Under the pieces are notes generated by a model. That model made no database searches. It had not been told where the DNA came from and saw only the letters and a list, made by a program, of their open reading frames with translations. Shown one piece after another: positions 649 through 59,299 of a stretch of DNA of 64,000 nucleotides. A program made the translations under genes and the position numbers. The stretch comes from Eledone cirrhosa (lineage: Eukaryota), in NCBI GenBank assembly GCA_964016885.1, contig OZ024744.1, positions 131,316,001-131,380,000 of the forward strand. The letters are read 5' to 3'. The first letter of the stretch is position 1. Every line of letters begins with the position of its first letter.

Positions 649-1041
649 AACCCCAACTTCACTCAACCCCACCTTAACTCAACCCCAACTTAACTTAAGC
701 CCAACTTCACTCAACCCCAACTTAACTTAACCCCAACTTCAGTCAACCCCAACTTAACTCAACCCCAACTTAACTTAACCCCAACTTAACTTAACCCTAA
801 CTTAACTTAACCCCAACTTAACTTAACTTCGACTTAACTTAACCCCAACTTAACTTAACCCCAACTTAACTTAACCCCAACTTAACTTAACCACAAATTA
901 ACTTAACCCCAACTTAAATTAACCCCAACTTGAATTAACCCCAACTTAACTTAACCCCAACTTAACTTAACCCCAACTTAAATTAACCCCAACTTGACTT
1001 AACCCCAAATTAACTTAACCCCAACTTAACTTAACCCCAAA
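649..1041 (-). repeat. Inverted satellite cassette, type A (393 bp)
   Basis: C-rich monomers between left junction TGTGGTT|AACCCC (648/649) and right junction CCCCAAA|TTCGGGG (1041/1042). Carries cassette markers CTTCACTCAACCCCACC, AACTTCGAC and CCACAAATT. Confidence 0.97.
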
Positions 1042-3520
1042 TTCGGGGTTAAGTTAAGTTGGGGTTAAATTAAGTTAGGCTTAACTTAAGTTGGGGTTAA
1101 GTTAATTTGGGGTTAAGTTGGGGTTAAGTTAAGTTAGGGTTAAGTTAAGTTGGGGTTGAGTTAAGTTGGGGTTAAGTTAAGTTGGGGTTAAGTTAAGTTG
1201 GAGTCAAGTTAAGTTGGGGTTAAAATTAAGTTGGGGTTAAATCAAGTTGGGGTTAAGTTAAAGTGGGGTTAATTTAGATGGGGTTAAGTTAAGTTGGGGC
1301 TAAGTTAAGTTGGGGCTAAGTTAAGTTGGGACTAAGTTAAGTTGGGGTTAAGTTAAGTTGGGGTTAAGTTAAGTTGGGGTTAATTTAAGTTGGGATTGAG
1401 TTAAGTTGGGGTTAAGTTAAGTTGGGGTTATATTAAGTTGAGGTTAAGTTAAGTTGGGGTTAAGTTAAGTTGGGGTTCAGTTAAGTTGCGGTTAAGTTAA
1501 GTTGGGGTTAAGTTAAGTTGGGGTTAAGTTAAGTTGGGGTTAAGTTAAGTTGGGGTCAAGTTAAGTTGGGGTTAAGTTAAGTTGGTTAGTTAAGTTGAGG
1601 TTAAGTTAAGTTGGGGTTAAGTTAAGTTGGGGTTAAGTTAAGTTGGGGTTAATTTAAGTTAGGGTTAAGTTAAGTTGGGGTTCAGTTAAGTTGGGGTTAA
1701 GTCAAGTTGGGGTTAAGTTGGGGTTAAATTAAGTTGGGGTTAAGTTAAGTTGGGGTCAAGTTAAGTTGGGGTTAAGTTAAGTTGGGGTTCAGTTAAGTTG
1801 GGGTTAATTCAAGTTGGGGTTAAGTTGGGGTTAAATTAAGTTGGGGCTAAGTTAAGTTGGGGCTAAGTTAAGTTGGGGCTAAGTTAAGTTGGGGTTCAGT
1901 TAAGTTGGGGTTAAGTTAAGTTTGGGTTAAGTTGGGGTTAAATTAAGTTGGGGTTAAGTTAAGTTGGGGTTTAGTTAAGTTGGGGTTAATTTAAGTTGGG
2001 GTTAATTTAAGTTGCGGTTAAGTTAAGTTGGGGTTAAGTTAAGTGGTGGTTATGTTAAGTTGGGGTTAAGTTAAGTTGGGGTTAATTTAAATTGGGGTTA
2101 AGTTAACTTTGTGGTTAAGTTAAGTTGGGGTTAAGTTAAGTTGGGGTTAAGTGAAGTTGGGGTTGCGTTAAGTCGGGGTTGAGTGAAGTTGGGGTTAAGT
2201 TAAGTTGGGGTTAATTTAAGTTGGGGTTAAGTTAAGTCGGGCTTAAGTTAAGTTGGGGTTAAGTTAATTTGGGGTTAAGTTAAGTTGGGGTTAAGTTAAG
2301 TTGGGGTTGAGTTAAGTTGGGGTTGAGTTAATTTAGGGTTAAGTTAAGTTGGGGTTAAGTTAAGTTGGGTTTAAGTTAAGTTGGGGTTAAATTAAGTTGG
2401 GGTTAAATTAAGTTGGGGTTAAGTTAAGTTGGGGGTAAGTTAAGTTGGGGTTCAGTTAAGTTGCGGTTAAGTTAAGTTGGGGTTAAGTTAAGTTGGGGTT
2501 AAGTTAAGTTGGGGTCAAGTTAAGTTGGGGTTATGTTAAGTTGGGGTTTAGTTAAGTTGGTGTTCATTTAAGTTGGGGTTAAGTTAAGTTTGGGTTAAGT
2601 TGGGGTTAAATTAAGTTGGGGTTAAGTTAAGTTGGGGTTAAGTTAAGTTGGGGTTAAGTTAAGTTGGGGTTAAGTTAAGTTGGGGTTAATTTAAGTTGGG
2701 GTTAAGTTAAGTTGCGGGTAATTTAAGTTGGGGTTAAGTTAAGTTGGGGTTAAGTTAAGTTGGGGTTAAGTTAAGTTGGGGTTAAGGTAAGTTGGGGTTA
2801 AGTTAAATTGGGGCTAAGTTAAGTTGGGGCTGAGTTAAGTTGGGGTTAAGTTAAGTTGGGGTTAAGTTAAGTTGGGGTTAAGTTAAGTTGGGGTTAAGTT
2901 AAGTTGGGGTTGAGTTAAGTTGGGGTTAAGTTAAGTAGGGGTAAGTTAAGTTGGGGTTCAGTTAAGTTGGGGTTAAGTTAAGTTGGGGTTAAGTTAAGTT
3001 GGGGTTAAGTTAAGTCGGGGTTAAGTTAAGTCGGGGTTAAGTTAAGTTAGGGTTAAGTTAAGTTGGAGTTAAGTTAAGTTGGGGTTGAGTTAAGTTGGGG
3101 TTGAGTTAAATTGGGGTTGAGTTAAGTTGGGGTTGAGTTAAGTTGGTGTTGAGTTAAGTTGGGGTTAAATTGAGTTGGGGTTAAATTAAGTTGGGGTTAA
3201 GTAAATTTGGGGGTAAGTTAAGTTGGGGGCAAGTTAAGTTGGGGCTAATTTAAGTTGGGGTTAAATTAAGTTGGGGTTACGTTAAGTTGGTGTTAAGTTA
3301 AGTTGGGGTTAATTTAAGTTGGGGTTAATTAAGTTAGGGTTAAGTTAAGTTGGGGTTAAGTTAAGTTGGGGTTAATTTAAGTTGGGGTTGAGTTAAGTTA
3401 GGGTTAAGTTAAGTTGGGGTTATATTAAGTTGGGGTTAAGTTAAGTTGGGGTTGAGTTAAGTTAGGGTTAAGTTAAGTTGGGGTTATATTAAGTTGGGGT
3501 TAAGTTATGTTGGAGTTAAG

Positions 3521-3540
3521 TTAAGTTAGGCCTAACTTAA
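3521..3540. other. Perfect 20-bp palindrome TTAAGTTAGGCCTAACTTAA (orphan copy, no adjacent cassette)
   Basis: The sequence equals its own reverse complement and is centred on AGGCCT. Other copies lie at 27890-27909 and 31280-31299. Confidence 0.93.
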
Positions 3541-5579
3541 GTTGGAGTTAAGTTAAGTTGGGGGTAAGTTAAGTTGGGGGTAAGTTAAGTTGGGGTTAAG
3601 TTAAGTTGGGGTTAAGTTGGGGTTAAGTTAAGTTAGGGTTAAGTTAAGTTGGGGTTGAGTTAAGTTAGGGTTAAGTTAAGTGGTGGTTATGTTAAGTTGG
3701 GGTGAAGTTAACTGGGGTTAATTTAAATTGGTGTTAAGTTAACTTTGTGGTTAAGTTAAGTTGGGGTTAAGTTAAGTTGGGGTTAAGTTAAGTTGGGGTT
3801 GAGTTAAGTTGGGGTTGAGTGAAGTTGGGGTTAAGTTAAGTTGGGGTTAATTTAAGTTGGGGTTAAGTTAAATCGGAGTTAAGTTAAGTTGGGGTTGAGT
3901 TAAGTTGGCGTTAATTTAAGTTGGGGCTAAGTTAAGTTGGGGTTAAGTTAAGTTGAGGTTAAGTTAAGTTGGGGTTGAGTTAAGTTGGGGTTGAGTTAAT
4001 TTGGGGTTAAGTTAAGTTGGGGTTAAGTTAAGTTGGGTTTAAGTTAAGTTGGGGTTAAATTAAGTTGGGGTTAAATTAAGTTGGGGTTAAGTTAAGTTGG
4101 GGGTAAGATAAGTTGGGAGCAAGTTAAGTTGGGGTTAAGTTAAGTTGGGGTTAAATTAAGTTGGGGTTAAGTTAAGTTGGGGTTATATTAAGTTGGGGTT
4201 AAGTTAAGTTGGGGTTAAGTTAAGTTGGGGTTCAGTTAAGTTGCGGTTAAGTTAAGTTGGGGTTAAGTTAAGTTGGGGTTAAGTTAAGTTGGGGTCAAGT
4301 TAAGTTGGGGTTAAGTTAAGTTTGGGTTAAGTTAAGTTGGGGCTAATTTAAGTTGGGGCTGAGTTAAGTTGGGGTTAAGTTAAGTTGGGGTTAAGTTAAT
4401 TTGGGGTTAAGTTGGGGTTAAGTTAATTTGGGGTTTATTTAAATTGGGGTTAAGTTAAGTTGGGGTTCAGTTAAGTTGGGGTTCAGTTAAGTTGGGGTTA
4501 AGTTAAGTTGGGGTTAAGTTAAGTTGGTTAGTTAAGTTGAGGTTAAGTTAAGTTGGGGTTAAGTTAAGTTGGGGTTAAGTTAAGTTGGGGTTAATTTAAG
4601 TTAGGGTTAAGTTAAGTTGGGGTTCAGTTAAGTTGGGGTTAAGTCAAGTTGGGGTTAAGTTGGGGTTAAATTAAGTTGGGGTTAAGTTAAGTTGGGGTCA
4701 AGTTAAGTTGGGGTTAAGTTAAGTTGGGGTTAAGTTAAGTTGGGGTTAAGTTAAGTTGGGGTTCAGTTAAGTTGGGGTTAATTCAAGTTGGGGTTAAGTT
4801 GGGGTTAAATTAAGTTGGGGCTAAGTTAAGTTGGGGCTAAGTTAAGTTGGGGCTAAGTTAAGTTGGGGTTCAGTTAAGTTGGGGTTAAGTTAAGTTTGGG
4901 TTAAGTTGGGGTTAAATTAAGTTGGGGTTAAGTTAAGTTGGGGTTTAGTTAAGTTGGGGTTAATTTAAGTTGGGGTTAATTTAAGTTGCGGTTAAGTTAA
5001 GTTGGGGTTAAGTTAAGTGGTGGTTATGTTAAGTTGGGGTTAAGTTAAGTTGGGGTTAATTTAAATTGGGGTTAAGTTAACTTTGTGGTTAAGTTAAGTT
5101 GGGGTTAAGTTAAGTTGGGGTTAAGTTAAGTTGGGGTTGCGTTAAGTCGGGGTTGAGTGAAGTTGGGGTTAAGTTAAGTTGGGGTTAATTTAAGTTGGGG
5201 TTAAGTTAAGTCGGGCTTAAGTTAAGTTGGGGTTAAGTTAATTTGGGGTTAAGTTAAGTTGGGGTTAAGTTAAGTTGGGGTTGAGTTAAGTTGGGGTTGA
5301 GTTAATTTAGGGTTAAGTTAAGTTGGGGTTAAGTTAAGTTGGGTTTAAGTTAAGTTGGGGTTAAATTAAGTTGGGGTTAAATTAAGTTGGGGTTAAGTTA
5401 AGTTGGGGGTAAGTTAAGTTGGGGGCAAGTTAAGTTGGGGTTAAGTTAAGTTGGGGTTAAATTAAGTTGGGGTTAAGTTTAGTTGGTGTTAAGTTAAGTT
5501 GGGGTTTATTTAAGTTGGGGTTAATTAAGTTGGGGCTGAGTTAAGTTGGGGCTGAATTAAGTTGGGGTTAAGTTAAGTT

Positions 5580-7120
5580 GGGGTTGAGTTAAGTTGGGGT
5601 TAAGTTAAGTTGGGGTTAAGTTAAGTTGGGGTTCAGTTAAGTTGGGGTTAAGTTGGGGTTAAATTAATTTGGGGTTAAGTTAAGTTGGGGTTTAGTTTAG
5701 TTGGGGTTAAATTAAGTTGGGGTTAATTTAAGTTGGGGTTAAGTTAAGTTGCGGGTAATTTAAGTTGGGGTTAAGTTAAGTTGGGGTTAAGTTAAGTTGG
5801 GGTTAAGTTAAGTTGGGGGTAAGTTAAGTTGGGGGTAAGTTAAGTTGGGGTTAAGTTAAGTTGGGGTTAAGTTAAGTTAGGGTTAAGTTAAGTTGGGGTT
5901 GAGTTAAGTTGGGGTTAAGTTAAGTTGGGGTTATGTTAAGTTGGGGTTAAGTTAAGTTGGTTCGTTAAGTTGAGTTTAAGTTAAGTGGGGTTAATTTAAG
6001 TTGGGGTTAAGTTAAGTTGGGGTTAAGTTAAGTTGGGGTTAAGTTAAGTTGGGGTTAAGTTAAGTTGGGGTTCAGTTAAGTTGGGGTTAAGTCAAGTTGG
6101 GGTTAAGTTGGGGTTAAATTAATTTGGGGTTAAGTTAAGTTGGGGTTAAGTTAAGTTGGGGTTATGTTAAGTTGGGGTTAAGTTAAGTTGGGGTTAAGTT
6201 AATTTGTGGTTAAGTTAAGTTGTGGTTAACCCCAACTTCACTCAACCCCACCTTAACTCAACCCCAACTTAACTTAAGCCCAACTTCACTCAACCCCAAC
6301 TTAACTTAACCCCAACTTCACTCAACCCCAACTTAACTCAACCCCAACTTAACTTAACCCCAACTTAACTTAACCCTAACTTAACTTAACCCCAACTTAA
6401 CTTAACTTCGACTTAACTTAACCCCAACTTAACTTAACCCCAACTTAACTTAACCCCAACTTAAATTAACCCCAACTTGAATTAACCCCAACTTAACTTA
6501 ACCCCAACTTAACTTAACCCCAACTTAAATTAACCCCAACTTGACTTAACCCCAAATTAACTTAACCCCAACTTAACTTAACCCCAAATTCGGGGTTAAG
6601 TTAAGTTGGGGTTAAATTAAGTTAGGCTTAACTTAAGTTGGGGTTAAGTTAATTTGGGGTTAAGTTGGGGTTAAGTTAAGTTAGGGTTAAGTTAAGTTGG
6701 GGTTGAGTTAAGTTGGGGTTAAGTTAAGTTGGGGTTAAGTTAAGTTGGGGTCAAGTTAAGTTGGGGTTAAAATTAAGTTGGGGTTAAATCAAGTTGGGGT
6801 TAAGTTAAAGTGGGGTTAATTTAGTTGGGGTTAAGTTAAGTTGGGGCTAAGTTAAGTTGGGGCTAAGTTAAGTTGGGACTAAGTTAAGTTGGGGTTAAGT
6901 TAAGTTGGGGTTAAGTTAAGTTGGGGTTAATTTAAGTTGGGATTGAGTTAAGTTGGGGTTAAGTTAAGTTGGGGTTATATTAAGTTGAGGTTAAGTTAAG
7001 TTGGGGTTAAGTTAAGTTGGGGTTCAGTTAAGTTGCGGTTAAGTTAAGTTGGGGTTAAGTTAAGTTGGGGTTAAGTTAAGTTGGGGTTAAGTTAAGTTGG
7101 GGTCAAGTTAAGTTGGGGTT
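5580..7120 (+). repeat. Segmental duplicate of ~1-1570 (offset 5579 at the start)
   Basis: Shared rare variants: 15-bp monomer AAGTGGGG (~405 / ~5984), AACTTAAGCCCAAC inside the cassette (~692 / ~6271) and AAAGTGGGG (~1260 / ~6807). Cassette starts are 649 and 6228. Confidence 0.85.
6228..6588 (-). repeat. Inverted satellite cassette, type A (361 bp)
   Basis: Same two junctions as 649-1041. It is 32 bp (two monomers) shorter and lacks the CCACAAATT monomer. Confidence 0.97.
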
Positions 7121-7654
7121 AAGTTAAGTTGGGGTTAAATTAAGTTGGGGTTAATTTAAGTTGGGGTTAAATCAAGTTGGGGTTAAGTTAAAGTGGGGTT
7201 AATTTAGTTGGGGTTAAGTTAAGTTGGGGCTAAGTTAAGTTGGGGCTAAGTTAAGTTGGGACTAAGTTAAGTTGGGGTTAAGTTAAGTTGGGGATAAGTT
7301 AAGTTGGGGTTAAGTTAAGTTGGGTTTAAGTTAAGTTGGGGTTAAGTTAAGTTGCGGTTAAGTTAAGTTGGTTAGTTAAGTTGAGTTTAAGTTAAGTTGG
7401 GGTTAATTTAAGTTGGGGTTAAGTTACGTTGGGGTTAAGTTAAGTTGGGGCTAAGTTAAGTTGGGGTTCAGTTAAGTTGGGGTTAAATCAATTTGGGGTT
7501 AAGTTGGGGTTAAATTAATTTGGGGTTAAGTTAAGTTGGGTTAAGTTAAGTTGGGGTTAAGTTAAGTTGGGGTTAAGTTAAGTTGGGGTTAAGTTAAGTT
7601 GGAGTTAAGTTAAGTTTGGGTTGAGTTAAGTTGGGGTTGAGTTAAATTGGGGTT

Positions 7655-9003
7655 AACTCCAACTTAAGTTAACCCCAACTTAACTTAACCCCAACTTCAC
7701 TCAACCCCAACTTAACTTAACCCCAACTTCACTCAACCCCAACTTAACTCAACCCCAACCTAACTTAACCCCAACTTCACTCAACCCCAACTTATCTTAA
7801 CCCCAACTTAATTTAACCCCATCTTAACCCCAACTTAACTTAACCCCAACTTAACTGAACCCCAACTTAACTTAACCCCAACTTAACTCAACCCCAACAT
7901 AACTTAAACCCAACTTAACTTAAACCCAACTTAACTTAACCCCAACTTAACTTAACCCCAACTTAACTCAACCCCAACTTAACTTAACCCCAACTTAACT
8001 CAGCCCCAACTTAACTCAGCCCCAACTTAACTAAGCCCCAACTTAACTTAACACCAACTTAACATAACCCCAACTTAACTTAACCCCAACTTAACTTAAC
8101 CCCAACTTAACTTAACCCCAATTTAAGTTGACCCCAACTTAAATTAACCCCACCTTAACTTAACCCCAACTTAACTTAACCCCAACTTAACTTAGCCCCA
8201 ACTTAACTTAGCCCCAACTTAACTTAGCCCCAACTTAACTTAACCCCAACTAAATTAACCCCAACTTAACTTAACCCCAACTTGATTTAACCCCAACTTA
8301 ATTTTAACCCCAAATTAACTTGACCCCAACTTAACTTAACCCCAACTTAACTTAACCCCAACTTAACTTAACCCCAACTTAATTTAACCCCAACTTAATT
8401 TAACCCCAACTTAACTTAAACCCAACTTAACTTTATCCCAACTTAACTTAACCCTAACTTAACTCAACCCCAACTTAACTCAACCCCAACTTAACTTAAC
8501 GCCAACTTAACTTAACCCCAACGTAACTTAACCCCAACTTCACTCAACCCCAACTTAACTCAACCCCAACTTAACTTAACCCCAACTTAACTTAACCCCA
8601 ACTTAACTTAACCACAAAGTTAACTTAACCCCAATTTAAATTAACCCCAACTTAACTTAACCCTAACTTAACTTAACCCCAACTTAACTTAGCCCCAACT
8701 TAACTTAGCCCCAACTTATCTTAGCCCCAACTTAACTTAACCCCAACTAAATTAACCCCAACTTAACTTAACCCCAACTTGACTTAACCCCAACTTAATT
8801 TTAACCCCAACTTAACTTGACCCCAACTTAACTTAACCCCAACTTAACTTAACCCCAACTTAACTCAACCCCAACTTAACTTAACCCCAACTTAACTTAA
8901 CCCCAAATTAACTTACCCAGAACTTAACTTACCCCCAACTTAACTTAACCCCAACTTAAGTTAAGACTAACTTAACTTAACCCCAACTTAACTTAACCCC
9001 GAA
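7655..9003 (-). repeat. Long C-rich block (1349 bp): type-B cassette start fused to the first arm of a large secondary inversion
   Basis: Begins with the type-B junction GGGGTT|AACTCCAACTTAAGTTAACCCC. Ends in CCCCGAA|TTTGGGG, the reverse complement of the usual right junction. Confidence 0.93.
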
Positions 9004-9348
9004 TTTGGGGTTAAGTTAAGTTGGGGTTAAGTTAAGTTGGGGTTAAGTCAAGTTGGGGTTAAGTTAAGTTGGGGTTAATTTAAGTTGGGGTTAATTTAAG
9101 TTGGGGTTAAGTTAATTTGTGGTTAAGTTAAGTTGGGGTTAAGTTAAGTTGGGGTTAAGTTAAGTCGAAGTTAAGTGAAGTCGGGGGTAAGTTAAGTTAG
9201 CGTTAAGTTAAGTTGGGGTTAAGTTAAGTTGGGGTTGAGTTAAGTTGGGGTTGAGTGAAGTTGGGGTTAAGTTAAGTTGGGGTTGAGTGAAGTTGGGGTT
9301 AAGTTAAGTTGGGGTTGAGTTAAGGTGGGGTTGAGTGAAGTTGGGGTT
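9004..9348 (+). repeat. Doubly inverted cassette (345 bp, G-rich): reverse complement of the cassette subtype at 34797 and 40366
   Basis: Contains GTCGAAGTTAAGTGAAGTCGG and TTAGCGTT, the reverse complements of CCGACTTCACTTAACTTCGAC and AACGCTAA in the 34797-35221 cassette. Confidence 0.92.
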
Positions 9349-10144
9349 AACCCCAACTTAACTTAACCACGAATTAACTTAACCCCAACTTAACTTAACC
9401 CCAACTTAACTTAACCCCAACTTAACTTAACCCCAAATTAATTTAACCCCAACTTAACCCCAACTTGACTTAACCCCAACTTAACTGAACCCCAAATTAA
9501 CTTAACCCCAACTTAACTTAACCCCAACTTAACTTAACCCCAACTTAACTTAACCCCAACTTAAAGTAACCCCAACTTAACTTAAACTCAACTTAACTAA
9601 CCAACTTAACTTAACCCCCATTTAAGTTGACCCCAACTTAAATTAACCCCACCTTAACTTAACCCCAACTTAACTTAACCCCAACTTAACTTAGCCCCAA
9701 CTTAACTTAGCCCCAACTTAACTTAGCCCCAACTTAACTTAACCCCAACTAAATTAACCCCAACTTAACTTAACCCCAACTTGACTTAACCCCAACTTAA
9801 TTTTAACCCCAACTTAACTTGACCCCAACTTAACTTAACCCCAACTTAACTTAACCCCAACTTAACTTACCCCCAACTTAACTTAACCCCAACTTAATTT
9901 AACCCCAACTTAACTTAAACACAACTTAACTTAACCCCAACTTAACTTAACCCTAAATTAACTCAACCCCAACTTAACTCAACCCCAACTTAAATAAACG
10001 CCAACTTAACTTAACCCCAACTTAACCCCAACTTAACTTAACCCCAACTTAACTTACCCAGAACTTAACTTACCCCCAACTTAACTTAACCCCAACTTAA
10101 GTTAAGCCTAACTTAACTTAACCCCAACTTAACTTAACCCCGAA
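9349..10144 (-). repeat. C-rich block (796 bp): second arm of the large secondary inversion
   Basis: Starts at GGGGTT|AACCCC followed by CCACGAATT (reverse complement of AATTCGTGG at ~34770). Ends in CCCCGAA|TTTGGGG. Confidence 0.93.
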
Positions 10145-11243
10145 TTTGGGGTTAAGTTAAGTTGGGGTTAATTTAAGTTGGGGTTAAGTTAAGTCGGGGT
10201 TAAGTTAAGTTGGGGGTAAGTTAAGTTGGGTGTGAGTTAAGTTGGGGTTAAGTTAATTTGTGGTTAAGTTAAGTTGGGGTTAAGTTAAGTTGGGGTTAAG
10301 TTAAGTTGGGGTTGAGTTAAGTTGGGGTTGAGTTAATTTAGGGTTAAGTTAAGTTGGGGTTAAGTTAAGTTGGGTTTAAGTTAAGTTGGGGTTAAATTAA
10401 GTTGGGGTTAAATTAAGTTGGGGTTAAGTTAAGTTGGGGGTAAGTTAAGTTGGGGGCAAGTTAAGTTGGGGTTAAGTTAAGTTGGGGTTAAATTAAGTTG
10501 GGGTTAAGTTTAGTTGGTGTTAAGTTAAGTTGGGGTTTATTTAAGTTGGGGTTAATTAAGTTGGGGCTGAGTTAAGTTGGGGCTGAATTAAGTTGGGGTT
10601 AAGTTAAGTTGGGGTTTAGTTAAGTTGGGGTTCAGTTAAGTTGGGGTTAAGTTGGGGTTAAATTAATTTGGGGTTAAGTTAAGTTGGGGTTTAGTTTAGT
10701 TGGGGTTAAATTAAGTTGGGGTTAATTTAAGTTGGGGTTAAGTTAAGTTGCGGGTAATTTACGTTGGGGTTAAGTTAAGTTGGGGTTAAGTTAAGTTGGG
10801 GTTAAGTTAAGTTGGGGGTAAGTTAAGTTGGGGGTAAGTTAAGTTGGGGGTAAGTTAAGTTGGGGTTAAGTTAAGTTGGGGTTAAGTTAAGTTAGGGTTA
10901 AGTTAAGTTGGGGTTGAGTTAAGTTGGGGTTAAGTTAAGTTGGGGTTATGTTAAGTTGGGGTTAAGTTAAGTTGGTTCGTTAAGTTGAGTTTAAGTTAAG
11001 TTGGGGTTAATTTCAGTTGGGGTTAAGTTAAGTTGGGGTTAAGTTAAGTTGGGGTTAAGTTAAGTTGGGGTTAAGTTAAGTTGGGGTTCAGTTAAGTTGG
11101 GGTTAAGTCAAGTTGGGGTTAAGTTGGGGTTAAATTAATTTGGGGTTAAGTTAAATTGGGGTTAAGTTAAGTTGTGGTTATGTTAAGTTGGGGTTAAGTT
11201 AAGTTGGGGTTAAGTTAATTTGTGGTTAAGTTAAGTTGTGGTT

Positions 11244-11684
11244 AACCCCAACTTCACTCAACCCCACCTTAACTCAACCCCAACTTAACTTAACCCCAAC
11301 TTCACTCAACCCCAACTTAACTTAACCCCAACTTCACTCAACCCCAACTTAACTCAACCCCAACTTAACTTAACCCCAACTTAACTTAACCCTAACTTAA
11401 CTTAACCCCAACTTAACTTAACTTCGACTTAACTTAACCCCAACTTAACTTAACCCCAACTTAACTTAACCCCAACTTAACTTAACCACAAATTAACTTA
11501 ACCCCAACTTAAATTAACCCCAACTTAAATTAACCCCAACTTAACTTAACCCCAACTTAACTTAACCCCAACTTAACTTAACCCCAACTTAACTCACACC
11601 CAACTTAACTTACCCCCAACTTAACTTAACCCCAACTTGACTTAACCCCAAATTAACTTAACCCCAACTTAACTTAACCCCAAA
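11244..11684 (-). repeat. Inverted satellite cassette, type A (441 bp)
   Basis: Junctions TGTGGTT|AACCCC and CCCCAAA|TTCGGGG. Markers AACTTCGAC, CCACAAATT and CTCACACCC. Confidence 0.97.
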
Positions 11685-13984: not shown

Positions 13985-14425
13985 AACCCCAACTTCACTC
14001 AACCCCACCTTAACTCAACCCCAACTTAACTTAACCCCAACTTCACTCAACCCCAACTTAACTTAACCCCAACTTCACTCAACCCCAACTTAACTCAACC
14101 CCAACTTAACTTAACCCCAACTTAACTTAACCCTAACTTAACTTAACCCCAACTTAACTTAACTTCGACTTAACTTAACCCCAACTTAACTTAACCCCAA
14201 CTTAACTTAACCCCAACTTAACTTAACCACAAATTAACTTAACCCCAACTTAAATTAACCCCAACTTAAATTAACCCCAACTTAACTTAACCCCAACTTG
14301 ACTTAACCCCAACTTAACTTAACCCCAACTTAACTCACACCCAACTTAACTTACCCCCAACTTAACTTAACCCCAACTTGACTTAACCCCAAATTAACTT
14401 AACCCCAACTTAACTTAACCCCAAA
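13985..14425 (-). repeat. Inverted satellite cassette, type A (441 bp)
   Basis: Same junctions and markers as 11244-11684. Confidence 0.97.
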
Positions 14426-17400: not shown

Positions 17401-17506
17401 AATTGGGGTTAAATTAAGTTGGGGTTAAATTAAGTTGGGGTTAAGTTAAGTTGGGGGTAAGTTAAGTTGGGGGCAAGTTAATTTGTGGATAAGTTAAGTT
17501 GTGGTT

Positions 17507-25227: not shown

Positions 25228-25572
25228 AACCCCAACTTCACTCAACCCCACCTTAACTCAACCCCAACTTAACTTAACCCCAACTTAACTTAACCCTAAC
25301 TTAACTTAACCCCAACTTAACTTAACTTCGACTTAACTTAACCCCAACTTAACTTAACCCCAACTTAACTTAACCCCAACTTAACTTAACCACAAATTAA
25401 CTTAACCCCAACTTAAATTAACCCCAACTTAAATTAACCCCAACTTAACTTAACCCCAACTTAACTTAACCCCAACTTAACTCACACCCAACTTAACTTA
25501 CCCCCAACTTAACTTAACCCCAACTTGACTTAACCCCAAATTAACTTAACCCCAACTTAACTTAACCCCAAA
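25228..25572 (-). repeat. Inverted satellite cassette, type A with GTGGAT left flank (345 bp)
   Basis: Same junctions. Three monomers shorter than 17507-17899. Confidence 0.97.
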
Positions 25573-49307: not shown

Positions 49308-49700
49308 AACCCCAACTTCACTCAACCCCACCTTAACTCAACCCCAACTTAACTTAACCCCAACTTCACTCAACCCCAACTTAACTCAACCCCAACTTAA
49401 CTTAACCCCAACTTAACTTAACCCTAACTTAACTTAACCCCAACTTAACGTAACTTCGACTTAACTTAACCCCAACTTAACTTAACCCCAACTTAACTTA
49501 ACCCCAACTTAACTTAACCACAAATTAACTTAACCCCAACTTAAATTAACCCCAACTTAAATTAACCCCAACTTAACTTAACCCCAACTTAACTTAACCC
49601 CAACTTAACTCACACCCAACTTAACTTACCCCCAACTTAACTTAACCCCAACTTGACTTAACCCCAAATTAACTTAACCCCAACTTAACTTAACCCCAAA
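49308..49700 (-). repeat. Inverted satellite cassette, type A with GTGGAT left flank (393 bp)
   Basis: Same junctions and length as 17507-17899. Confidence 0.97.
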
Positions 49701-52700
49701 TTCGGGGTTAAGTTAAGTTGGGGTTAAATTAAGTTAGGCTTAACTTAAGTTGGGGTTAAGTTAAATTGGGGGTAAGTTAAGTTCTGGGTAAGTTAAGTTG
49801 GGGTTAAGTTAAGTTGGGGTTAAGTTGGGTTTAAGTTAAGTTAGGGTTAAGTTAAGTTGGGGTTGAGTTAAGTTGGGGTTAAGTTAAGTTGGGGTTATGT
49901 TAAGTTGGGGTCAAGTTAAGTTGGGGTTAAAATTAAGTTGGGGTTAAATCAAGTTGGGGTTAAGTTAAGTTGGGGTTAATTTAGTTGGGGTTAAGTTAAG
50001 TTGGGGCTAAGTTAAGTTGGGGCTAAGTTAAGTTGGGGCTAAGTTAAGTTGGGGTTAAGTTAAGTTGGGGTTAAGTTAAGTTGGGGTTAATTTAAATTGG
50101 GGTTAAGTTAACTTTGTGGTTAAGTTAAGTTGGGGTTAAGTTAAGTTGGGGTTAAGTTAAGTTGGGGTTGAGTTAAGTTGGGGTTGAGTGAAGTTGGTGT
50201 TAAGTTAAGTTGGGGTTAAGTTGGCGTTAAGTTAAATTGGGGTTGAGTTAATTTAGGGTTAAGTTAAGTTGGGGGTAAGTTAAGTTGGGGGTAAGTTAAG
50301 TTGGGGGTAAGTTAAGTTGGGGTTAAGTTAAGTTGGGGTTAAGTTAAGTTAGGGTTAAGTTAAGTTGGGGTTGAGTTAAGTTGGGGTTAAGTTAAGTTGG
50401 GGTTATGTTAAGTTGGGGTTAAGTTAAGTTGGTTCGTTAAGTTGAGTTTAAGTTAAGTTGGGGTTAATTTAAGTTGGGGTTAAGTTAAGTTGGGGTTAAG
50501 TTAAGTTGGGGTTAATTTAAATTGGGGTTAAGTTAACTTTGTGGCTAAGTTAAGTTGGGGTTAAGTTAAGTTGGGGTTAAGTTAAGTTGGGGTTGAGTTA
50601 AGTTGGGGTTGAGTGAAGTTGGGGTTAAGTTACGTTGGGGTTAAGTTAAGTTGGCGTTAAGTTAAGTTGGGGTTGAGTTAAGTTTGGGTTGAGTTAATTT
50701 AGGGTTAAGTTAAGTTGGGGTAAAGTTAAGTTGGGTTTAAGTTAAGTTGGGGTTAAATTAAGTTGGGGTTAAATTAAGTTGGGGTTAAGTTAAGTTGGGG
50801 GTAAGTTAAGTTGGGGTTAAGTTAAGTTGGGGTTAAGTTAAGTTGGGGTTAAGTTAAGTTGGGGTCAAGTTAATTTGGGGTTAAAATTAAGTTGGGGTTA
50901 AATCAAGTTGGGGTTAAGTTAAGTTGGGGTTAATTTAGTTGGGGTTAAGTTAAGTTGGGGCTAAGTTAAGTTGGGGCTAAGTTAAGTTGGGGCTAAGTTA
51001 AGTTGGGGTTAAGTTAAGTTGGGGTTAAGTTAAGGTGGGGTTAATTTAAGTTGGGGTCAACTTAAATTGGGGTTAAGTTAAGTTGGGGTTAAGTTAAGTT
51101 GGGGTTAATTTAAGTTGGGGTTAAGTTAAGTTGGTGTTAAGTTAAGTTGGGGCTTAGTTAAGTTGGGGCTGAGTTAAGTTGGGGCTGAGTTAAGTTGGGG
51201 TTAAGTTAAGTTGGGGTTGAGTTAAGTTGGGGTTAAGTTAAGTTGGGGTTAAGTTAAGTTGGGGTTAAGTTAAGTTGGGTTTAAGTTATGTTGGGGTTGA
51301 GTTAAGTTGGGGTTAAGTTAAGTTGGGGTTCAGTTAAGTTGGGGTTAAGTTAAGTTGGGGTTAAGATGGGGTTAAATTAAGTTGGGGTTAAGTTAAGTTG
51401 GGGTTAAGTTAAGTTGGGGTTAAGTTAAGTTGGGGTTAAGTTAAGTCGGGGTTAAGTTAAGTCGGGGTTAAGTTAAGTTAGGGTTAAGTTAAGTTGGAGT
51501 TAAGTTAAGTTGGGGTTGAGTTAAGTTGGGGTTGAGTTAAATTGGGGTGGAGTTAAGTTGGGGTTAAGTTAAGTTGGTGTTGAGTTAAGTTGGGGTTAAG
51601 TTAAGTTGGGGTTAAGTTAAGTGCAGTTAAGTTAAGTTGAGGTTAAGTTATGTAGGGGTTAAGTTAAGTTGGGGTTAAGTTAAGTTGGGGCTAAGTTAAG
51701 TTGGGGCTAAGTTAAGTTGGGGCTAAGTTAAGTTGGGGTTCAGTTAAGTTGGGGTTAAGTTAAGTTTGGGTTAAGTTGGGGTTAAATTAAGTTGGGGTTA
51801 AGTTAAGTTGGGGTTAAGTTAAGTTGGGGTTAAGTTAAGTTGGGGTTAAGTTAAGTCGGGGTTAAGTTAAGTCAGGGTTAAGTTAAGTTAGGGTTAAGTT
51901 AAGTTGGAGTTAAGTTAAGTTGGGGTTGAGTTAAGTTGGGGTTGAGTTAAATTGGGGTGGAGTTAAGTTGGGGTTGAGTTAAGTTGGTGTTGAGTTAAGT
52001 TGGGGTTAAGTTAAGTTGCAGTTAAGTTAAGTTGAGGTTAAGTTAAGTTGGGGTTAAGTTAAGTTGGGGTTAAGTTAAGTTGGGGCTAAGTTAAGTTGGG
52101 GCTAAGTTAAGTTGGGGCTAAGTTAAGTTGGGGTTCAGTTAAGTTGGGGTTAAGTTAAGTTTGGGTTAAGTTGGGGTTAAATTAAGTTGGGGTTAAGTTA
52201 AGTTGGGGTTTAGTTAAGTTGGGGTTAAGTTAAGTTGGGGTTAATTTAAGTTGGGGTTAAGTTAAGTTGGGGTTAAGTTGGCGTTAAGTTAAGTTGGGGT
52301 TGAATTAAGTTGGGGTTGAGTTAATTTAGGGTTAAGTTAAGTTGGGGTTAAGTTAAGTTGGGTTTAAGTTAAGTTGGGGTTAAATTAAGTTGGGGTTAAA
52401 TTAAGTTCGGGTTAAGTTAAGTTGGGGGTAAGTTAAGTTGGTGTTAAGTTAAGTTGGGGTTAAGTTAAGTTGGGGTTAAGTTAAGTTGGGGTCAAGTTAA
52501 GTTGGGGTTAAAATTAAGTTGGGGTTAAGTCAAGTTGGGGTTAAGTTAAGTTTGAGTTAATTTAGTTGGGGTTAAGTTAAGTTGGGGCTAAGTTAAGTTG
52601 GGGCTAAGTTAAGTTGGGGCTAAGTTAAGTTGGGGTTAAGTTAAGTTGGGGTTAAGTTAAGGTGGGGTTAATTTAAGTTGGGGTCAACTTAAATTGGGGT

Positions 52701-55700
52701 TAAGTTAAGTTGGGGTTAAGTTAAGTTGGGGTTAAGTTAAGTTGGAGTTAAGTTAAGTTGGGGTTAAGTTAAGTTGGTGTTAAGTTAAGTTGGGGCTAAG
52801 TTAAGTTGGGGCTGAGTTAAGTTGGGGCTGAGTTAAGTTGGGGTTAATTTAAGTTGGGGTTGAGTTAAGTTGGGGTTAAGTTAAGTTGGGGTTAAGTTAA
52901 GTTGGGGTTAAGTTAAGTTGGGGTTGAGTTAAGTTGGGGTTAAGTTAAGTTGGGGTTAAGTTAAGTTGGGGTTCAGTTAAGTTGGGGTTAAGTTAAGTTG
53001 GGGTTAAGATGGGGTTAAATTAAGTTGGGGTTAAGTTAAGTTGGGGTTAAGTTAATTTGGGGTTAAGTTAAGTCGGGGTTAAGTTAAGTCGGGGTTAAGT
53101 TAAGTTAGGGTTAAGTTAAGTTGGAGTTAAGTTAAGTTGGGGTTAAGTTAAGTTGGGGTTGAGTTAAATTGGGGTGGAGTTAAGTTGGGGTTGAGTGAAG
53201 TTGGGGTTAAGTTACGTTGGGGTTAAGTTAAGTTGGCGTTGAGTTAAGTTGGGGTTGAGTTAAGTTGGGGTTGAGTTAATTTAGGGTTAAGTTAAGTTGG
53301 GGTAAAGTTAAGTTGTGTTTAAGTTAAGTTGGGGTTAAATTAAGTTGGGGTTAAATTAAGTTGGGGTTAAGTTAAGTTGGGGGAAAGTTAAGTTGGGGTT
53401 AAGTTAAGTTGGGGTTAAGTTAAGTTGAGGTTAAGTTAAGTTGGGGTCAAGTTAATTTGGGGTTAAAATTAAGTTGGGGTTAAATCAAGTTGGGGTTAAG
53501 TTAAGTTGGGGTTAATTTAGTTGGGGTTAAGTTAAGTTGGGGCTAAGTTAAGTTGGGGCTAAGTTAAGTTGGGGCTAAGTTAAGTTGGGGTTAAGTTAAG
53601 TTGGGGTTAAGTTAAGGTGGGGTTAATTTAAGTTGGGGTCAACTTAAATTGGGGTTAAGTTAAGTTGGGGTTAAGTTAAGTTGGGGTTAAGTTAAGTTGG
53701 GGTTAAGTTAAGTTGGTGTTAAGTTAAGTTGGGGCTTAGTTAAGTTGGGGCTGAGTTAAGTTGGGGCTGAGTTAAGTTGGGGTTAAGTTAAGTTGGGGTT
53801 GAGTTAAGTTGGGGTTAAGTTAAGTTGGGGTTAAGTTAAGTTGGGGTTAAGTTAAGTTGGGTTTAAGTTATGTTGGGGTTGAGTTAAGTTGGGGTTAAGT
53901 TAAGTTGGGGTTCAGTTAAGTTGGGGTTAAGTTAAGTTGGGGTTAAGATGGGGTTAAATTAAGTTGGGGTTAAGTTAAGTTGGGGTTAAGTTAAGTTGGG
54001 GTTAAGTTAAGTTGGGGTTAAGTTAAGTCGGGGTTAAGTTAAGTCGGGGTTAAGTTAAGTTAGGGTTAAGTTAAGTTGGAGTTAAGTTAAGTTGGGGTTG
54101 AGTTAAGTTGGGGTTGAGTTAAATTGGGGTGGAGTTAAGTTGGGGTTAAGTTAAGTTGGTGTTGAGTTAAGTTGGGGTCAAGTTAAGTTGGGGTTAAGTT
54201 AAGTGCAGTTAAGTTAAGTTGAGGTTAAGTTGTGTAGGGGTTAAGTTAAGTTGGGGTTAAGTTAAGTTGGGGCTAAGTTAAGTTGGGGCTGAGTTAAGTT
54301 GGGGCTAAGTTAAGTTGGGGTTCAGTTAAGTTGGGGTTAAGTTAAGTTTGGGTTAATTTGGGGTTAAATTAAGTTGGGGTTAAGTTAAGTTGGGGTTTAG
54401 TTAAGTTGGGGTTAATTTAAGTTGGGGTTAATTTAAGTTGCGGTTAAGTTAAGTTGGGGTTAAGTTAAGTGGTGGTTATGTTAAGTTGGGGTTAAGTTAA
54501 GTTGGGGTTAATTTAAATTGGGGTTAAGTTAACTTTGTGGTTAAGTTAAGTTGGGGTTAAGTTAAGTTGGGGTTAAGTTAAGTTGGGGTTGCGTTAAGTT
54601 GGGGTTGAGTGAAGTTGGGGTTAAGTTAAGTTGGGGTTAATTTAAGTTGGGGTTAAGTTAAGTCGGGCTTAAGTTAAGTTGGGGTTGAGTTAAGTTGGGG
54701 TTAATTTAAGTTGGGGCTAAGTTAATTTGTGGTTAAGTTAAGTTGGGGTTAAGTTAAGTTGGGGTTAAGTTAAGTTGGGGTTGAGTTAAGTTGGGGTTGA
54801 GTTAATTTAGGGTTAAGTTAAGTTGGGGTTAAGTTAAGTTGGGTTTAAGTTAAGTTGGGGGTAAGTTAAGTTGGGGGCAAGTTAAGTTGGGGTTAAGTTA
54901 AGTTGGGGTTAAATTAAGTTGGGGTTAAGTTTAGTTGGTGTTAAGTTAAGTTGGGGTTTATTTAAGTTGGGGTTAATTAGGTTGGGGCTGAGTTAAGTTG
55001 GGGCTGAATTAAGTTGGGGTTAAGTTAAGTTGGGGTTGAGTTAAGTTGGGGTTAAGTTAAGTTGGGGTTAAGTTGAGTTGAGGTTAAGTTAAGTTGGGGT
55101 TTAGTTAAGTTGGGGTTCAGTTAAGTTGGGGTTAAGTTGGGGTTAAATTAATTTGGGGTTAAGTTAAGTTGGGGTTTAGTTTAGTTGGGGTTAAATTAAG
55201 TTGGAGTTAATTTAAGTTGGGGTTAAGTTAAGTTGCGGGTAATTTAAGTTGGGGTTAAGTTAAGTTGGGGTTAAGTTAAGTTGGGGGTAAGTTAAGTTGG
55301 GGGTAAGTTAAGTTGGGGGTAAGTTAAGTTGGGGTTAAGTTAAGTTGGGGTTAAGTTAAGTTAGGGTTAAGTTAAGTTGGGGTTGAGTTAAGTTGGGGTT
55401 AAGTTAAGTTGGGGTTATGTTAAGTTGGGGTTAAGTTAAGTTGGTTCGTTAAGTTGAGTTTAAGTTAAGTTGGGGTTAATTTAAGTTGGGGTTAAGTTAA
55501 GTTGGGGTTAAGTTAAGTTGGGGTTAATTTAAATTGGGGTTAAGTTAACTTTGTGGCTAAGTTAAGTTGGGGTTAAGTTAAGTTGGGGTTAAGTTAAGTT
55601 GGGGTTGAGTTAAGTTGGGGTTGAGTGAAGTTGGGGTTAAGTTACGTTGGGGTTAAGTTAAGTTGGCGTTAAGTTAAGTTGGGGTTGAGTTAAGTTTGGG

Positions 55701-58700
55701 TTGAGTTAATTTAGGGTTAAGTTAAGTTGGGGTAAAGTTAAGTTGGGTTTAAGTTAAGTTGGGGTTAAATTAAGTTGGGGTTAAATTAAGTTGGGGTTAA
55801 GTTAAGTTGGGGGTAAGTTAAGTTGGGGTTAAGTTAAGTTGGGGTTAAGTTAAGTTGGGGTTAAGTTAAGTTGGGGTCAAGTTAATTTGGGGTTAAAATT
55901 AAGTTGGGGTTAAATCAAGTTGGGGTTAAGTTAAGTTGGGTTTAATTTAGTTGGGGTTAAGTTAAGTTGGGGCTAAGTTAAGTTGGGGCTAAGTTAAGTT
56001 GGGGCTAAGTTAAGTTGGGGTTAAGTTAAGGTGGGGTTAATTTAAGTTGGGGTCAACTTAAATTGGGGTTAAGTTAAGTTGGGGTTAAGTTAAGTTGGGG
56101 TTAAGTTAAGTTGGGGTTAAGTTAAGTTGGTGTTAAGTTAAGTTGGGGCTTAGTTAAGTTGGGGCTGAGTTAAGTTGGGGCTGAGTTAAGTTGGGGTTAA
56201 GTTAAGTTGGGGTTGAGTTAAGTTGGGGTTAAGTTAAGTTGGGGTTAAGTTAAGTTGGGGTTAAGTTAAGTTGGGTTTAAGTTATGTTGGGGTTGAGTTA
56301 AGTTGGGGTTAAGTTAAGTTGTGGTTCAGTTAAGTTGGGGTTAAGTTAAGTTGGGGTTAAGATGGGGTTAAATTAAGTTGGGGTTAAGTTAAGTTGGGGT
56401 TAAGTTAAGTTGGGGTTAAGTTAAGTTGGGGTTAAGTTAAGTCGGGGTTAAGTTAAGTCGGGGTTAAGTTAAGTTAGGGTTAAGTTAAGTTGGAGTTAAG
56501 TTAAGTTAGGGTTGAGTTAAGTTGGGGTTGAGTTAAATTGGGGTGGAGTTAAGTTGGGGTTAAGTTAAGTTGGTGTTGAGTTAAGTTGGGGTTAAGTTAA
56601 GTTGGGGTTAAGTTAAGTGCAGTTAAGTTAAGTTGAGGTTAAGTTATGTAGGGGTTAAGTTAAGTTGGGGTTAAGTTAAGTTGGGGCTAAGTTAAGTTGG
56701 GGCTAAGTTAAGTTGGGGCTAAGTTAAGTTGGGGTTCAGTTAAGTTGGGGTTAAGTTAAGTTTGGGTTAAGTTGGGGTTAAATTAAGTTGGGGTTAAGTT
56801 AAGTTGGGGTTAAGTTAAGTTGGGGTTAAGTTAAGTTGGGGTTAAGTTAAGTCGGGGTTAAGTTAAGTCGGGGTTAAGTTAAGTTAGGGTTAAGTTAAGT
56901 TGGAGTTAAGTTAAGTTGGGGTTGAGTTAAGTTGGGGTTGAGTTAAATTGGGGTGGAGTTAAGTTGGGGTTGAGTTAAGTTGGTGTTGAGTTAAGTTGGG
57001 GTTAAGTTAAGTTGGGGTTAAGTTAAGTTGCAGTTAAGTTAAGTTGAGGTTAAGTTAAGTTGGGGTTAAGTTAAGTTGGGGTTAAGTTAAGTTGGGGCTA
57101 AGTTAAGTTGGGGCTAAGTTAAGTTGGGGCTAAGTTAAGTTGGGGTTCAGTTAAGTTGGGGTTAAGTTAAGTTTGGGTTAAGTTGGGGTTAAATTAAGTT
57201 GGGGTTAAGTTAAGTTGGGGTTTAGTTAAGTTGGGGTTAAGTTAAGTTGGGGTTAATTTAAGTTGGGGTTAAGTTAAGTTGGGGTTAAGTTGGCGTTAAG
57301 TTAAGTTGGGGTTGAATTAAGTTGGGGTTGAGTTAATTTAGGGTTAAGTTAAGTTGGGGTTAAGTTAAGTTGGGTTTAAGTTAAGTTGGGGTTAAATTAA
57401 GTTGGGGTTAAATTAAGTTCGGGTTAAGTTAAGTTGGGGGTAAGTTAAGTTGGTGTTAAGTTAAGTTGGGGTTAAGTTAAGTTGGGGTTAAGTTAAGTTG
57501 GGGTCAAGTTAAGTTGGGGTTAAAATTAAGTTGGGGTTAAGTCAAGTTGGGGTTAAGTTAAGTTTGAGTTAATTTAGTTGGGGTTAAGTTAAGTTGGGGC
57601 TAAGTTAAGTTGGGGCTAAGTTAAGTTGGGGTTAAGTTAAGTTGGGGTTAAGTTAAGTTGGGGCTAAGTTAAGTTGGGGCTGAGTTAAGTTGGGGCTGAG
57701 TTAAGTTGGGGTTAATTTAAGTTGGGGTTGAGTTAAGTTGGGGTTAAGTTAAGTTGGGGTTAAGTTAAGTTGGGGTTAAGTTAAGTTGGGGTTGAGTTAA
57801 GTTGGGGTTAAGTTAAGTTGGGGTTAAGTTAAGTTGGGGTTCAGTTAAGTTGGGGTTAAGTTAAGTTGGTGTTAAGTTAAGTTGGGGCTAAGTTAAGTTG
57901 GGGCTGAGTTAAGTTGGGGCTGAGTTAAGTTGGGGTTAATTTAAGTTGGGGTTGAGTTAAGTTGGGGTTAAGTTAAGTTGGGGTTAAGTTAAGTTGGGGT
58001 TAAGTTAAGTTGGGGTTGAGTTAAGTTGGGGTTAAGTTAAGTTGGGGTTAAGTTAAGTTGGGGTTCAGTTAAGTTGGGGTTAAGTTAAGTTGGGGTTAAG
58101 ATGGGGTTAAATTAAGTTGGGGTTAAGTTAAGTTGGGGTTAAGTTAAGTTGGGGTTAAGTTAAGTTGGGGTTAAGTTAAGTCGGGGTTAAGTTAAGTCGG
58201 GGTTAAGTTAAGTTAGGGTTAAGTTAAGTTGGAGTTAAGTTAAGTTGGGGTTGAGTTAAGTTGGGGTTGAGTTAAATTGGGGTGGAGTTAAGTTGGGGTT
58301 GAGTTAAGTTGGTGTTGAGTTAAGTTGGGGTTAAGTTAAGTTGGGGTTAAGTTAAGTTGCAGTTAAGTTAAGTTGAGGTTAAGTTAAGTTGGGGTTAAGT
58401 TAAGTTGGGGTTAAGTTAAGTTGGGGCTAAGTTAAGTTGGGGCTAAGTTAAGTTGGGGCTAAGTTAAGTTGGGGTTCAGTTAAGTTGGGGTTAAGTTAAG
58501 TTGGTTAGTTAAGTTGAGTTTAATTTAAGTTGGGGTTAATTTAAGTTGGGGCTAAGTTAAGTTGGGGTTAAGTTAAGTTGGGGTTAAGTTAAGTTGGGGT
58601 TAAGTTAATTTGGGGTTCAGTTAAGTTGGGGTTAAGTCAAGTTGGGGTTAAGTTGGGGTTAAATTAATCTGGGGTTAAGTTATTGTTGGGGTTAAGTTAA

Positions 58701-58917
58701 GTTGGGGTTAAGTTAAGTTGGGGTTAAGTTAAGTTGGGGTTAAGTTAATTTGGGGTTGAGTTAATTTGGGGTTAAGTTAAGTTGGGGTTAAGTTAAGTTG
58801 GGTTTAAGTTAAGTTGGGGTTAAATTAAGTTGGGGTTAAATTAAGTTGGGGTTAAGTTAAGTTGGGGGTAAGTTAAGTTGGGGGCAAGTTAATTTGTGGA
58901 TAAGTTAAGTTGTGGTT

Positions 58918-59299
58918 AACCCCAACTTCACTCAACCCCACCTTAACTCAACCCCAACTTAACTTAACCCCAACTTCACTCAACCCCAACTTAACTCAAC
59001 CCCAACTTAACTTAACCCCAACTTAACTTAACTTAACCCCAACTTAACTTAACTTCGACTTAACTTAACCCCAACTTAACTTAACCCCAACTTAACTTAA
59101 CCCCAACTTAACTTAACCACAAATTAACTTAACCCCAACTTAAATTAACCCCAACTTAAATTAACCCCAACTTAACTTAACCCCAACTTAACTTAACCCC
59201 AACTTAACTCACACCCAACTTAACTTACCCCCAACTTAACTTAACCCCAACTTGACTTAACCCCAAATTAACTTAACCCCAACTTAACTTAACCCCAAA
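58918..59299 (-). repeat. Inverted satellite cassette, type A with GTGGAT left flank (382 bp)
   Basis: Same junctions. An 11-bp deletion near 59030 removes the CCCTAA monomer core. Confidence 0.97.

Follow-up and report, generated by a model that had tools for sequence, protein, structure and literature searches.

An inverted cassette of a 16-bp satellite in Eledone cirrhosa, present in about 750 copies: probable origin by template switching at TTAA and probable neutral spread by block duplication

Introduction

The window treated here is a stretch of 64,000 nucleotides from Eledone cirrhosa (assembly GCA_964016885.1, 3.0 Gb; contig OZ024744.1, hereafter C28, positions 131,316,001-131,380,000). 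It consists throughout of a single 16-bp satellite with the consensus GGGGTTAAGTTAAGTT, in 4,033 copies with 87% matches, G-rich on the + strand, and it belongs to an array which extends over about 8.3 Mb of C28 (~127.0-135.3 Mb; the start lies between 126.8 and 127.0 Mb, the end between 135.2 and 135.4 Mb, about 1.2 Mb short of the contig end). Short C-rich pieces of the same repeat, here called cassettes, interrupt the G-rich array in opposite orientation. The question raised by this locus is how such an inverted piece arose, how it came to be repeated, and whether its many copies reflect function or hitch-hiking. An original prediction, made from the letters of the window, had proposed one ancestral inversion amplified with its flanks, and had regarded the resulting palindromes as unusual, possibly functional, or as drivers of array turnover. 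In our judgement it is probable that about 750 copies of one inverted piece descend from a single template switch at TTAA and were afterwards neutral passengers of kilobase block duplications.

Results

Common descent of the cassettes

Two-state strand segmentation divided the window into 33 segments with 32 strand switches, and returned 14 C-rich cassettes at exactly the starts that had been predicted. All 14 finish in the right junction CCCCAAATTCGGGG, which has 14 forward matches in the window, and all start with the AAC of a GTTAAC joint, continuing as AACCCC in 12 and as AACTCC in two. Measured as in the prediction, 13 of 14 lengths follow the rule 16n+9, and in the exception, of 382 bp, one 21-mer replaces two monomers, which leaves it 11 bp shorter. 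Internal variant monomers are common to the cassettes and stand in the same order. Pairwise substitution divergence averaged 1.7% (range 0-8.6%) over the 14 cassettes and one inverted copy, and 8.7% over random 400-bp pairs from the array (n = 80 pairs). The predicted number of 32 switches was right, but the 14 cassettes account for only 28 of them, and four are due to a nested inverted block of 2.6 kb (7655-~10275), absent from the prediction and treated below.

The 24-base right-junction sequence of the window had 148 forward and 2 reverse matches in the genome (150 in total, reversed control 0), and a degenerate pattern of the same junction had 721 forward and 25 reverse matches (746, control 0). 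Among the 25 reverse matches, 23 are found in one block at C28 124.61-124.69 Mb and two in the window. The 100 of the 746 matches that were listed were all on C28, and the C28 cassette was not found in the samples taken from contigs C2 and C18. Outside the window, 69 stretches comprising 622 kb of C28 were sampled, and these contained 305 switches: 151 of 152 G-to-C switches had the same junction phase, and 152 of 153 C-to-G switches were of the same phase and family. As nearly all sampled switches fall in the same two junction phases, we attribute them to one ancestral event amplified in patches. The predicted inversion of single ancestry, amplified with its flanks and resized by whole monomers, is thus supported and holds array-wide; the single origin of the cassettes is strongly supported.

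Elsewhere in the array the cassettes are shorter than those of the window, 89-220 bp long at both 130.25-131.3 Mb and 133-135 Mb, and about 140-350 bp long at 132.0-132.8 Mb. They agree with the window's cassettes in left phase and are related to them in their variants, and their junction core is CCCCAAAGTCGG. The order of variants is common to all subfamilies from 89 to 492 bp, which mark array domains. The right junction had been called fixed; it is the same in 14 of 14 cassettes here, but it is a derived form whose counterpart in the shorter subfamilies elsewhere reads CCCCAAAGTCGG[G/A]G. The distribution along the array was patchy. Three domains were free of switches in every sample taken, 127.0-130.246 Mb (9 of 9 samples), 131.82-131.96 Mb (6 of 6) and 133.6-134.21 Mb (4 of 4), and a local triplet periodicity of junctions was found only at 131.06-131.31 Mb. 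Over a contiguous 144 kb the junction spacing ranged from 794 to 9599 bp with a coefficient of variation (CV) of 0.54, which is not the constant unit of a classical higher-order repeat.

Evidence that the switches are real

The cassettes are real. An artefact of assembly or of fold-back reads is next to inconceivable as a source of the switches, even if gaps of 200 N and poorly polished sequence lie nearby in the scaffold (124.69, 131.987 and 132.79 Mb) and the read runs X3 and X4, of unrecorded library type, may come from the assembly's own sample. The window is without N. Its left junction (643..654) is bridged by a 105-bp contig from X3 at depth 251, with 1 difference and with 52 and 50 bases on the two sides, and the right junction (1035..1048) lies inside 54-bp contigs from X3 and X4 at depths 480 and 363, with 0 differences and with 30 and 24 bases on the sides, which is below our 31-base rule for bridging. 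In addition, the C28 cassettes are not mirrors of the adjacent flanks; they carry heritable variants with subfamily structure, which would not be expected of a fold-back artefact. A mirror of the flanks, as left by a fold-back artefact or by a recent hairpin fill-in, was rejected for C28 on arm identity, which equals background, and such a relation holds only for a family on C18. The restriction site-associated DNA (RAD) runs X6, X7 and X8 and the runs X1 and X2 (organisms A and B) gave no listed junction-bridging record and are uninformative, the RAD runs because 82-93% of their reads continue into unrelated sequence.

Probable origin at TTAA words

The monomer contains two TTAA words, each of which is its own reverse complement. 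Five independent junctions could be compared, and four of them were TTAA-centred, whereas only 11-12 of the 256 possible phase pairs (~4-5%) are of this kind; the fifth is such a joint minus 4 bases. This fifth is the right junction of the C28 cassette, the present core of which reads as a perfect joint at the second TTAA without its 4 central bases. An independent cassette on C18 (sampled at 10.0-10.4 Mb) is 142 bp long, is made of the same 16-mer, occurs in 3 copies and has TTAA at both joints. Two variants of its own left flank, 4C7C and 5G7T9T, recur in it, and among 4,970 sampled monomers 4C7C on the G strand was found only at the three places of this cassette. Because it shares the variants of its own left flank, the C18 cassette is a local inverted copy, and such a copy with TTAA joints points to replication template switching. 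The cassette has two central monomers more than the flank, which is compatible either with inter-strand switching or with a central deletion that came later. A further G-to-C switch at C28:131.9646 Mb (L078:4580), the only de novo one seen on C28, has the second TTAA at its centre, does not mirror its flank, and opens a C-rich domain of about 23 kb that ends at a gap.

A template-switch origin of the cassette is likely. At one TTAA the polymerase would have left its template for the opposite strand, made a reversed copy of some hundreds of bases there, and come back at another TTAA, and the right junction would later have lost its 4 central bases. A clean two-break inversion at equivalent sites was not favoured, as it needs an 11-mer or a partial monomer at both breaks. 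A pattern search for other consensus-flanked C-to-G junctions returned the known family only; it missed the C18 junction and was therefore not exhaustive.

The enzymes of the piggyBac type are specific for TTAA, and a small mobile unit placed at TTAA by a transposase, or else many separate inversions converging on the same phase, could be imagined in view of the TTAA-centred left junction and the preference of the independent junctions for this word. However, the cassette is made of satellite monomers only, the right junction has no TTAA, and its private 6-nt centre recurs in 152 of 153 switches. Copies also have diagnostic flank variants in common on both sides, and these co-inherited flanks largely refute both possibilities, which we regard as very improbable.

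Spread compared with that of neutral variants

By a seed scan the array was found to be a mosaic of duplicated blocks of 0.6-1.5 kb with 98.5-100% identity, both with and without cassettes. Near-identical blocks contain the cassette together with both flanks. These are the visible products of a process in which unequal exchange or slippage would have multiplied the cassette within kilobase block duplications, and gains and losses of whole monomers would have given the subfamilies of 89-492 bp by which array domains are marked.

For comparison, eight neutral variant markers with at most 26 copies per marker were followed in the contiguous 144 kb. The copies shared a median of 11 flanking monomers on each side of the junctions, against 0-1 for random anchors and 1-31 for neutral markers. 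The density of cassettes was 2.15 per 10 kb (neutral markers 1.6-4.2). The right-flank marker occurred without its junction in 4 of 42 cases, and the corresponding values for seven neutral pairs ranged from 0/13 to 9/17, the pattern for an eighth pair having no match. Passive amplification of the cassettes is likely.

Palindromes, fragility and possible function

The prediction had described back-to-back imperfect palindromes without spacer and with arms of about 350-490 bp. The left junction has indeed no spacer, but the right junction has a 6-nt centre. The arms are not near-perfect; their identity of 89-91% (0.885-0.915) is that of random array pairs (0.904 +/- 0.020, n = 60). The perfect central arm is just 3-11 bp at the left junction (null median 15) and 12-32 bp around the 6-nt centre at the right. 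In the shorter families the left perfect centre has medians of 27 and 14 bp, against 3-11 bp in the window; this trend of longer arms with shorter centres reverses at the right junction and involves three related lineages, and it was not used. In yeast, inverted repeats with 94% and 86% arm identity had rearrangement rates about 15- and 58-fold lower (PMC10164571), and the fragility here is accordingly expected to be reduced, not absent. With arms of about 90% identity and short perfect centres, hairpins would form rarely, and the palindromes would be tolerated. The retention of so many switches had been called unusual. This was overstated, considering the thousands of conserved inversion sites in Tribolium (PMC13081366) and the 15-58-fold lower rearrangement rates of divergent arms in yeast (PMC10164571).

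At C28 130.4748 Mb (L101:3688-3808) a right junction and monomers on both sides of it have been deleted, and the ends re-fused at TTAA into a perfect palindromic joint.

This deleted and re-fused junction speaks for a rival account, in which the palindromes are fragile sites. By hairpin cleavage and break-induced copying they would actively drive the turnover of the array and amplify themselves. Arms of 350-490 bp with about 90% identity and centres of 0-6 nt are still in the recombinogenic range in yeast (PMC10164571), and cassettes contain four of the five larger-inversion boundaries examined away from gaps. Against this, flank sharing at the junctions is no shorter than at neutral markers, the rate of orphan flanks is ordinary, equally young block duplications of 99.9% identity occur in cassette-free stretches (e.g., 44576-46076 = 54101-55601), and only 2 of 150 matches to the 24-mer of the window are reverse, both within the nested block. 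We consider fragile sites of this kind quite unlikely. The predicted driving of array turnover stands only in so far as half-cassettes are found at these inversion boundaries; junctions were not broken or lost in excess of ordinary variants.

The junctions might instead be retained by selection as structural or regulatory landmarks, for instance because they form hairpins or cruciforms, offer loops to which proteins bind, or give rise to a hairpin RNA which silences the array. In folding calculations, single strands of 200 nt across junctions reached -67 to -84 kcal/mol, far below the -9 to -22 of plain array. Furthermore, the nearest-neighbour divergence of the cassettes, 0.32%, is lower than in seven of eight neutral control blocks (0.22-1.01%) and lies at the low end of these, a weak hint towards function, and a similar proposal exists for the inversion sites of Tribolium, where it is untested (PMC13081366, PMC12581902). 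On the other side, the spacing is irregular (0.8-9.6 kb), the 19 of 19 samples from three array domains have no switch, and the copy density is that of ordinary variants. The subfamilies have drifted apart freely in junction core, in cassette length (89-492 bp) and in the extent of the perfect arm (2-43 bp), and the independent C18 cassette has just 3 copies. We therefore find selected landmarks unlikely, if somewhat less so than fragile sites, and a function of the cassettes, as suggested in the original prediction, is unsupported.

A nested block and the boundaries of larger inversions

The nested block is bounded by two half-cassettes (Table 1). Both exchanges are same-sense and in phase, and no new junction has been created. 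A simple reciprocal inversion was ruled out for it, since the two half-cassettes are of different subtypes, and at least two exchanges are needed. Half-cassettes were found at four boundaries in all, at 7655 and 10142 in the window, at C28:133.3554 Mb, where a large C-rich domain terminates, and at C28:124.5995 Mb, where the half-cassette that opens the 124.6-Mb block is fused to a related satellite, G-rich and with a unit of 32 bp. Thus four of the five non-gap boundaries of larger inversions that were examined reuse a cassette, two of the four being from one block, and one is de novo; boundaries at 131.987, 132.794 and 124.69 Mb were excluded from this count because they abut N gaps. This reuse suggests that cassettes act as rare orientation adapters, and it is likely that they seed rare larger inversions in phase. 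Since a cassette reads in the same sense as the bulk array's opposite strand, an in-phase exchange inside it could flip a longer tract without any new junction, and the nested block may be one such product.

For the same reason, and with four of five non-gap boundaries in cassettes, one may go further and see in the cassette a built-in orientation adapter that is the main route to kilobase-to-megabase inversions in this satellite. We put this forward tentatively, as rather doubtful. If it is true, one copying slip sets the inversion rate of the whole array and could begin a macro-dyad architecture, and read-through transcripts would fold into a hairpin RNA of about 400 bp capable of silencing the array.

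Table 1. Positions of the cassettes, junctions and nested-block parts in the window, and of the cassettes on C18. Lengths of the cassettes in the window are counted through the C of AAATTC.
Feature	Position	Strand	Remarks
16-bp satellite, consensus GGGGTTAAGTTAAGTT	1..64000	+	repeat and block analysis; part of the ~8.3-Mb array
Left junction, example, G-to-C switch	643..654	.	centred on first TTAA of the monomer, no spacer
Right junction, example, C-to-G switch, CCCCAAATTCGGGG	1035..1048	.	6-nt centre
Type A cassette, 396 bp	649..1044	-	strand segmentation, variants
Type A cassette, 364 bp	6228..6591	-	block-duplicated sister of 649 (29-878 = 5608-6457, 99.9%)
Left half of type B cassette, left boundary of nested inversion	7655..7809	-	155 bp, 0 mismatches to type B copies (L007, L010)
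Inverted ordinary array	7810..9000	-	sister haplotype of forward 35225-~36500
15th cassette, reverse-oriented, 348 bp	9001..9348	+	closest relative 40366, 0.3% divergence
Inverted ordinary array	9349..10141	-	sister of forward 33698-34796
Reverse-oriented right half-cassette, right boundary of nested inversion	10142..10275 (end approximate)	+	merges in phase into forward array
Type A cassette, 444 bp	11244..11687	-	
Type A cassette, 444 bp	13985..14428	-	
Type A cassette, 396 bp	17507..17902	-	
Type A cassette, 444 bp	21470..21913	-	
Type A cassette, 348 bp	25228..25575	-	
Type B cassette, 492 bp	27373..27864	-	starts AACTCC
Type B cassette, 492 bp	30763..31254	-	27274-28668 = 30664-32058 at 99%
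Type A cassette, 428 bp	33270..33697	-	
Type A cassette, 428 bp	34797..35224	-	
Type A cassette, 428 bp	40366..40793	-	34002-35292 = 39571-40861 at 99.7%
Type A cassette, 396 bp	49308..49703	-	
Type A cassette with 11-bp deletion, 385 bp	58918..59302	-	
C18 cassette, 142 bp	L081:5120-5261 (C18 10.129 Mb)		
C18 cassette, 142 bp	L081:8220-8361 (C18 10.132 Mb)		
C18 cassette, 142 bp	L083:5796-5937 (C18 10.189 Mb)		

Relatives and neighbours of the 16-mer

The monomer can be parsed as TTAAG-TTAAG-TTGGGG, and presumably resembles the TTAGG-type telomere repeats of arthropods. The end of C28 has a different, CA-rich repeat (stretch L038). Unrelated satellites border the array at C28 120, 124, 126 and 135.6 Mb (L021, L022, L023 and L097), and those in L022 and L097 are apparently one family in opposite orientations on either side of the array. 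Short tracts of the 16-mer were also found at C2 209.2-209.3 Mb (L039, L040), within a tandem unit of about 520 bp that has about 300 bp of other sequence, and in RAD reads, where they continue into unrelated DNA. The 16-mer may have its source in an internal repeat of a dispersed element. The satellite that adjoins the half-cassette at C28 124.598 Mb (L059:1-1473) is a diverged 32-bp G-rich repeat with GGGGTT and TAAG-containing words, and is probably an older relative of the 16-mer.

The array at C28 132.2-132.8 Mb also includes a co-amplified AT-rich repeat, which contains short subrepeats and an inverted segment of its own (~190-200 bp) and is sometimes fused directly to truncated cassettes (L018:1-700 and 2940-4600, L019:1-1800, L041, L045 and L061). 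Beside the 200-N gaps at C28 132.794 and 131.986 Mb (L062:3743-5300, L079:5500-6000) stands a tract of TTAGG-like 16-mers, TTTTAACCTAACCTAA, and after it comes degraded C-rich sequence resembling long-read base-calling error. The orientation of the gap-bounded domains of C28 may be a choice of scaffolding.

Discussion

A single template-switch event followed by neutral spread is our preferred account of the cassettes, and there are several points that weigh against it. Firstly, the right junction has no intact TTAA, and the mirror signal in C28 is weak, just a 5G-5G pair at monomers 5-6 in both right-junction arms; as the local source is indicated by this one pair, the C28 cassette may instead have originated through inversion in place within one copy of the repeat. 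Secondly, cassettes diverge from their nearest neighbours about half as much as the flanks do (0.66% and 0.76% for the two flanks), which could come from mild selection; on the other hand, the way in which neighbours were chosen tends to lower the central values, and only another cassette can convert a cassette without flipping it. Thirdly, the neutrality tests are based on one assembly, and about 0.69 Mb of the array region was read, i.e., the window and the 622-kb sample. Finally, the nested block, with its two or more exchanges and no new junction, is known here from the assembly alone.

The closest published parallels are the satellites TmSat1 and TmSat2 of Tribolium madens and TfSat01 and TfSat03 of T. 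freemani, which have macro-dyad symmetries and conserved inversion sites; these number thousands, are 98.2-98.9% identical among copies, and the authors left open function versus co-propagation (PMC13081366, PMC12581902). As in Tribolium, the orientation switches repeatedly inside a megabase satellite array, and the inversion sites are conserved among many copies. However, the subarrays there are several kb long and tend to symmetry, whereas here a minority orientation of 89-492 bp stands against majority stretches of 1.1-9.2 kb; there the sites extend across chromosomes, and here, as far as listed and sampled, they are patchy within one 16-bp satellite array, can be traced to one event and can be compared with neutral markers. 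With multi-kb near-symmetric subarrays missing, the C28 array was not filed as a member of the Tribolium macro-dyad type. A further species, T. brevicornis, has a 1061-bp satellite unit with two inverted subunits of about 470 bp (as cited in PMC12581902). There, as here, an inverted segment of about 0.4-0.5 kb is propagated as part of an amplified unit, but in T. brevicornis every monomer has it, at a regular period, whereas in C28 its spacing is irregular and much of the array is without it.

Inverted tandem duplication and template switching are known local rearrangements (PMC5829575), and a four-point template-switch model was described for short-range mutations by Loytynoja and Goldman (2017; PMC5453318). 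The C18 cassette fits this model directly, and for C28 a local source is only suggested; the self-complementary homology of the model is seen at the switch points here, four of five being TTAA-centred. The model was made for unique sequence, tens of bases and single events, unlike the 140-490 bp of satellite treated here, amplified up to about 750-fold. The yeast model with inverted Alu repeats resembles the cassettes in arm length (a few hundred bases), in arm identity (86-94%) and in its spacers, which are short or absent (PMC10164571; reviewed in PMC7999016). Its rates are still raised at such identities, unlike the C28 array, where loss or breakage was not visibly in excess and remodelled copies are rare. 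Cichlid centromeres, organised around inverted "centroids", likewise have satellite blocks of alternating orientation, but differ in having four blocks and one pair of non-satellite elements of about 15 kb per centromere, tied to a methylation dip (PMC13652916), and no such arrangement was seen in the C28 array. In the literature, which was incompletely covered, we found no simple satellite described as carrying a short inverted cassette that had been amplified and tested against neutral markers, and a search with k-mers of the 16-bp repeat gave no paper on the satellite itself, as judged by title.

Conserved satellite inversion sites are currently read as possible functional elements, as in Tribolium (PMC13081366). 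The array of Eledone cirrhosa is a counter-example with internal controls: one event gave about 750 conserved copies that behave as neutral variants, and megabase domains of the same repeat free of cassettes, together with the independent three-copy replicate, serve as the controls. The alternative of function or hitch-hiking is hereby made directly testable. The array further shows that back-to-back palindromes of 350-490 bp with about 90% identity are able to persist by hundreds, and it suggests a route by which large strand switches may arise without new junctions.

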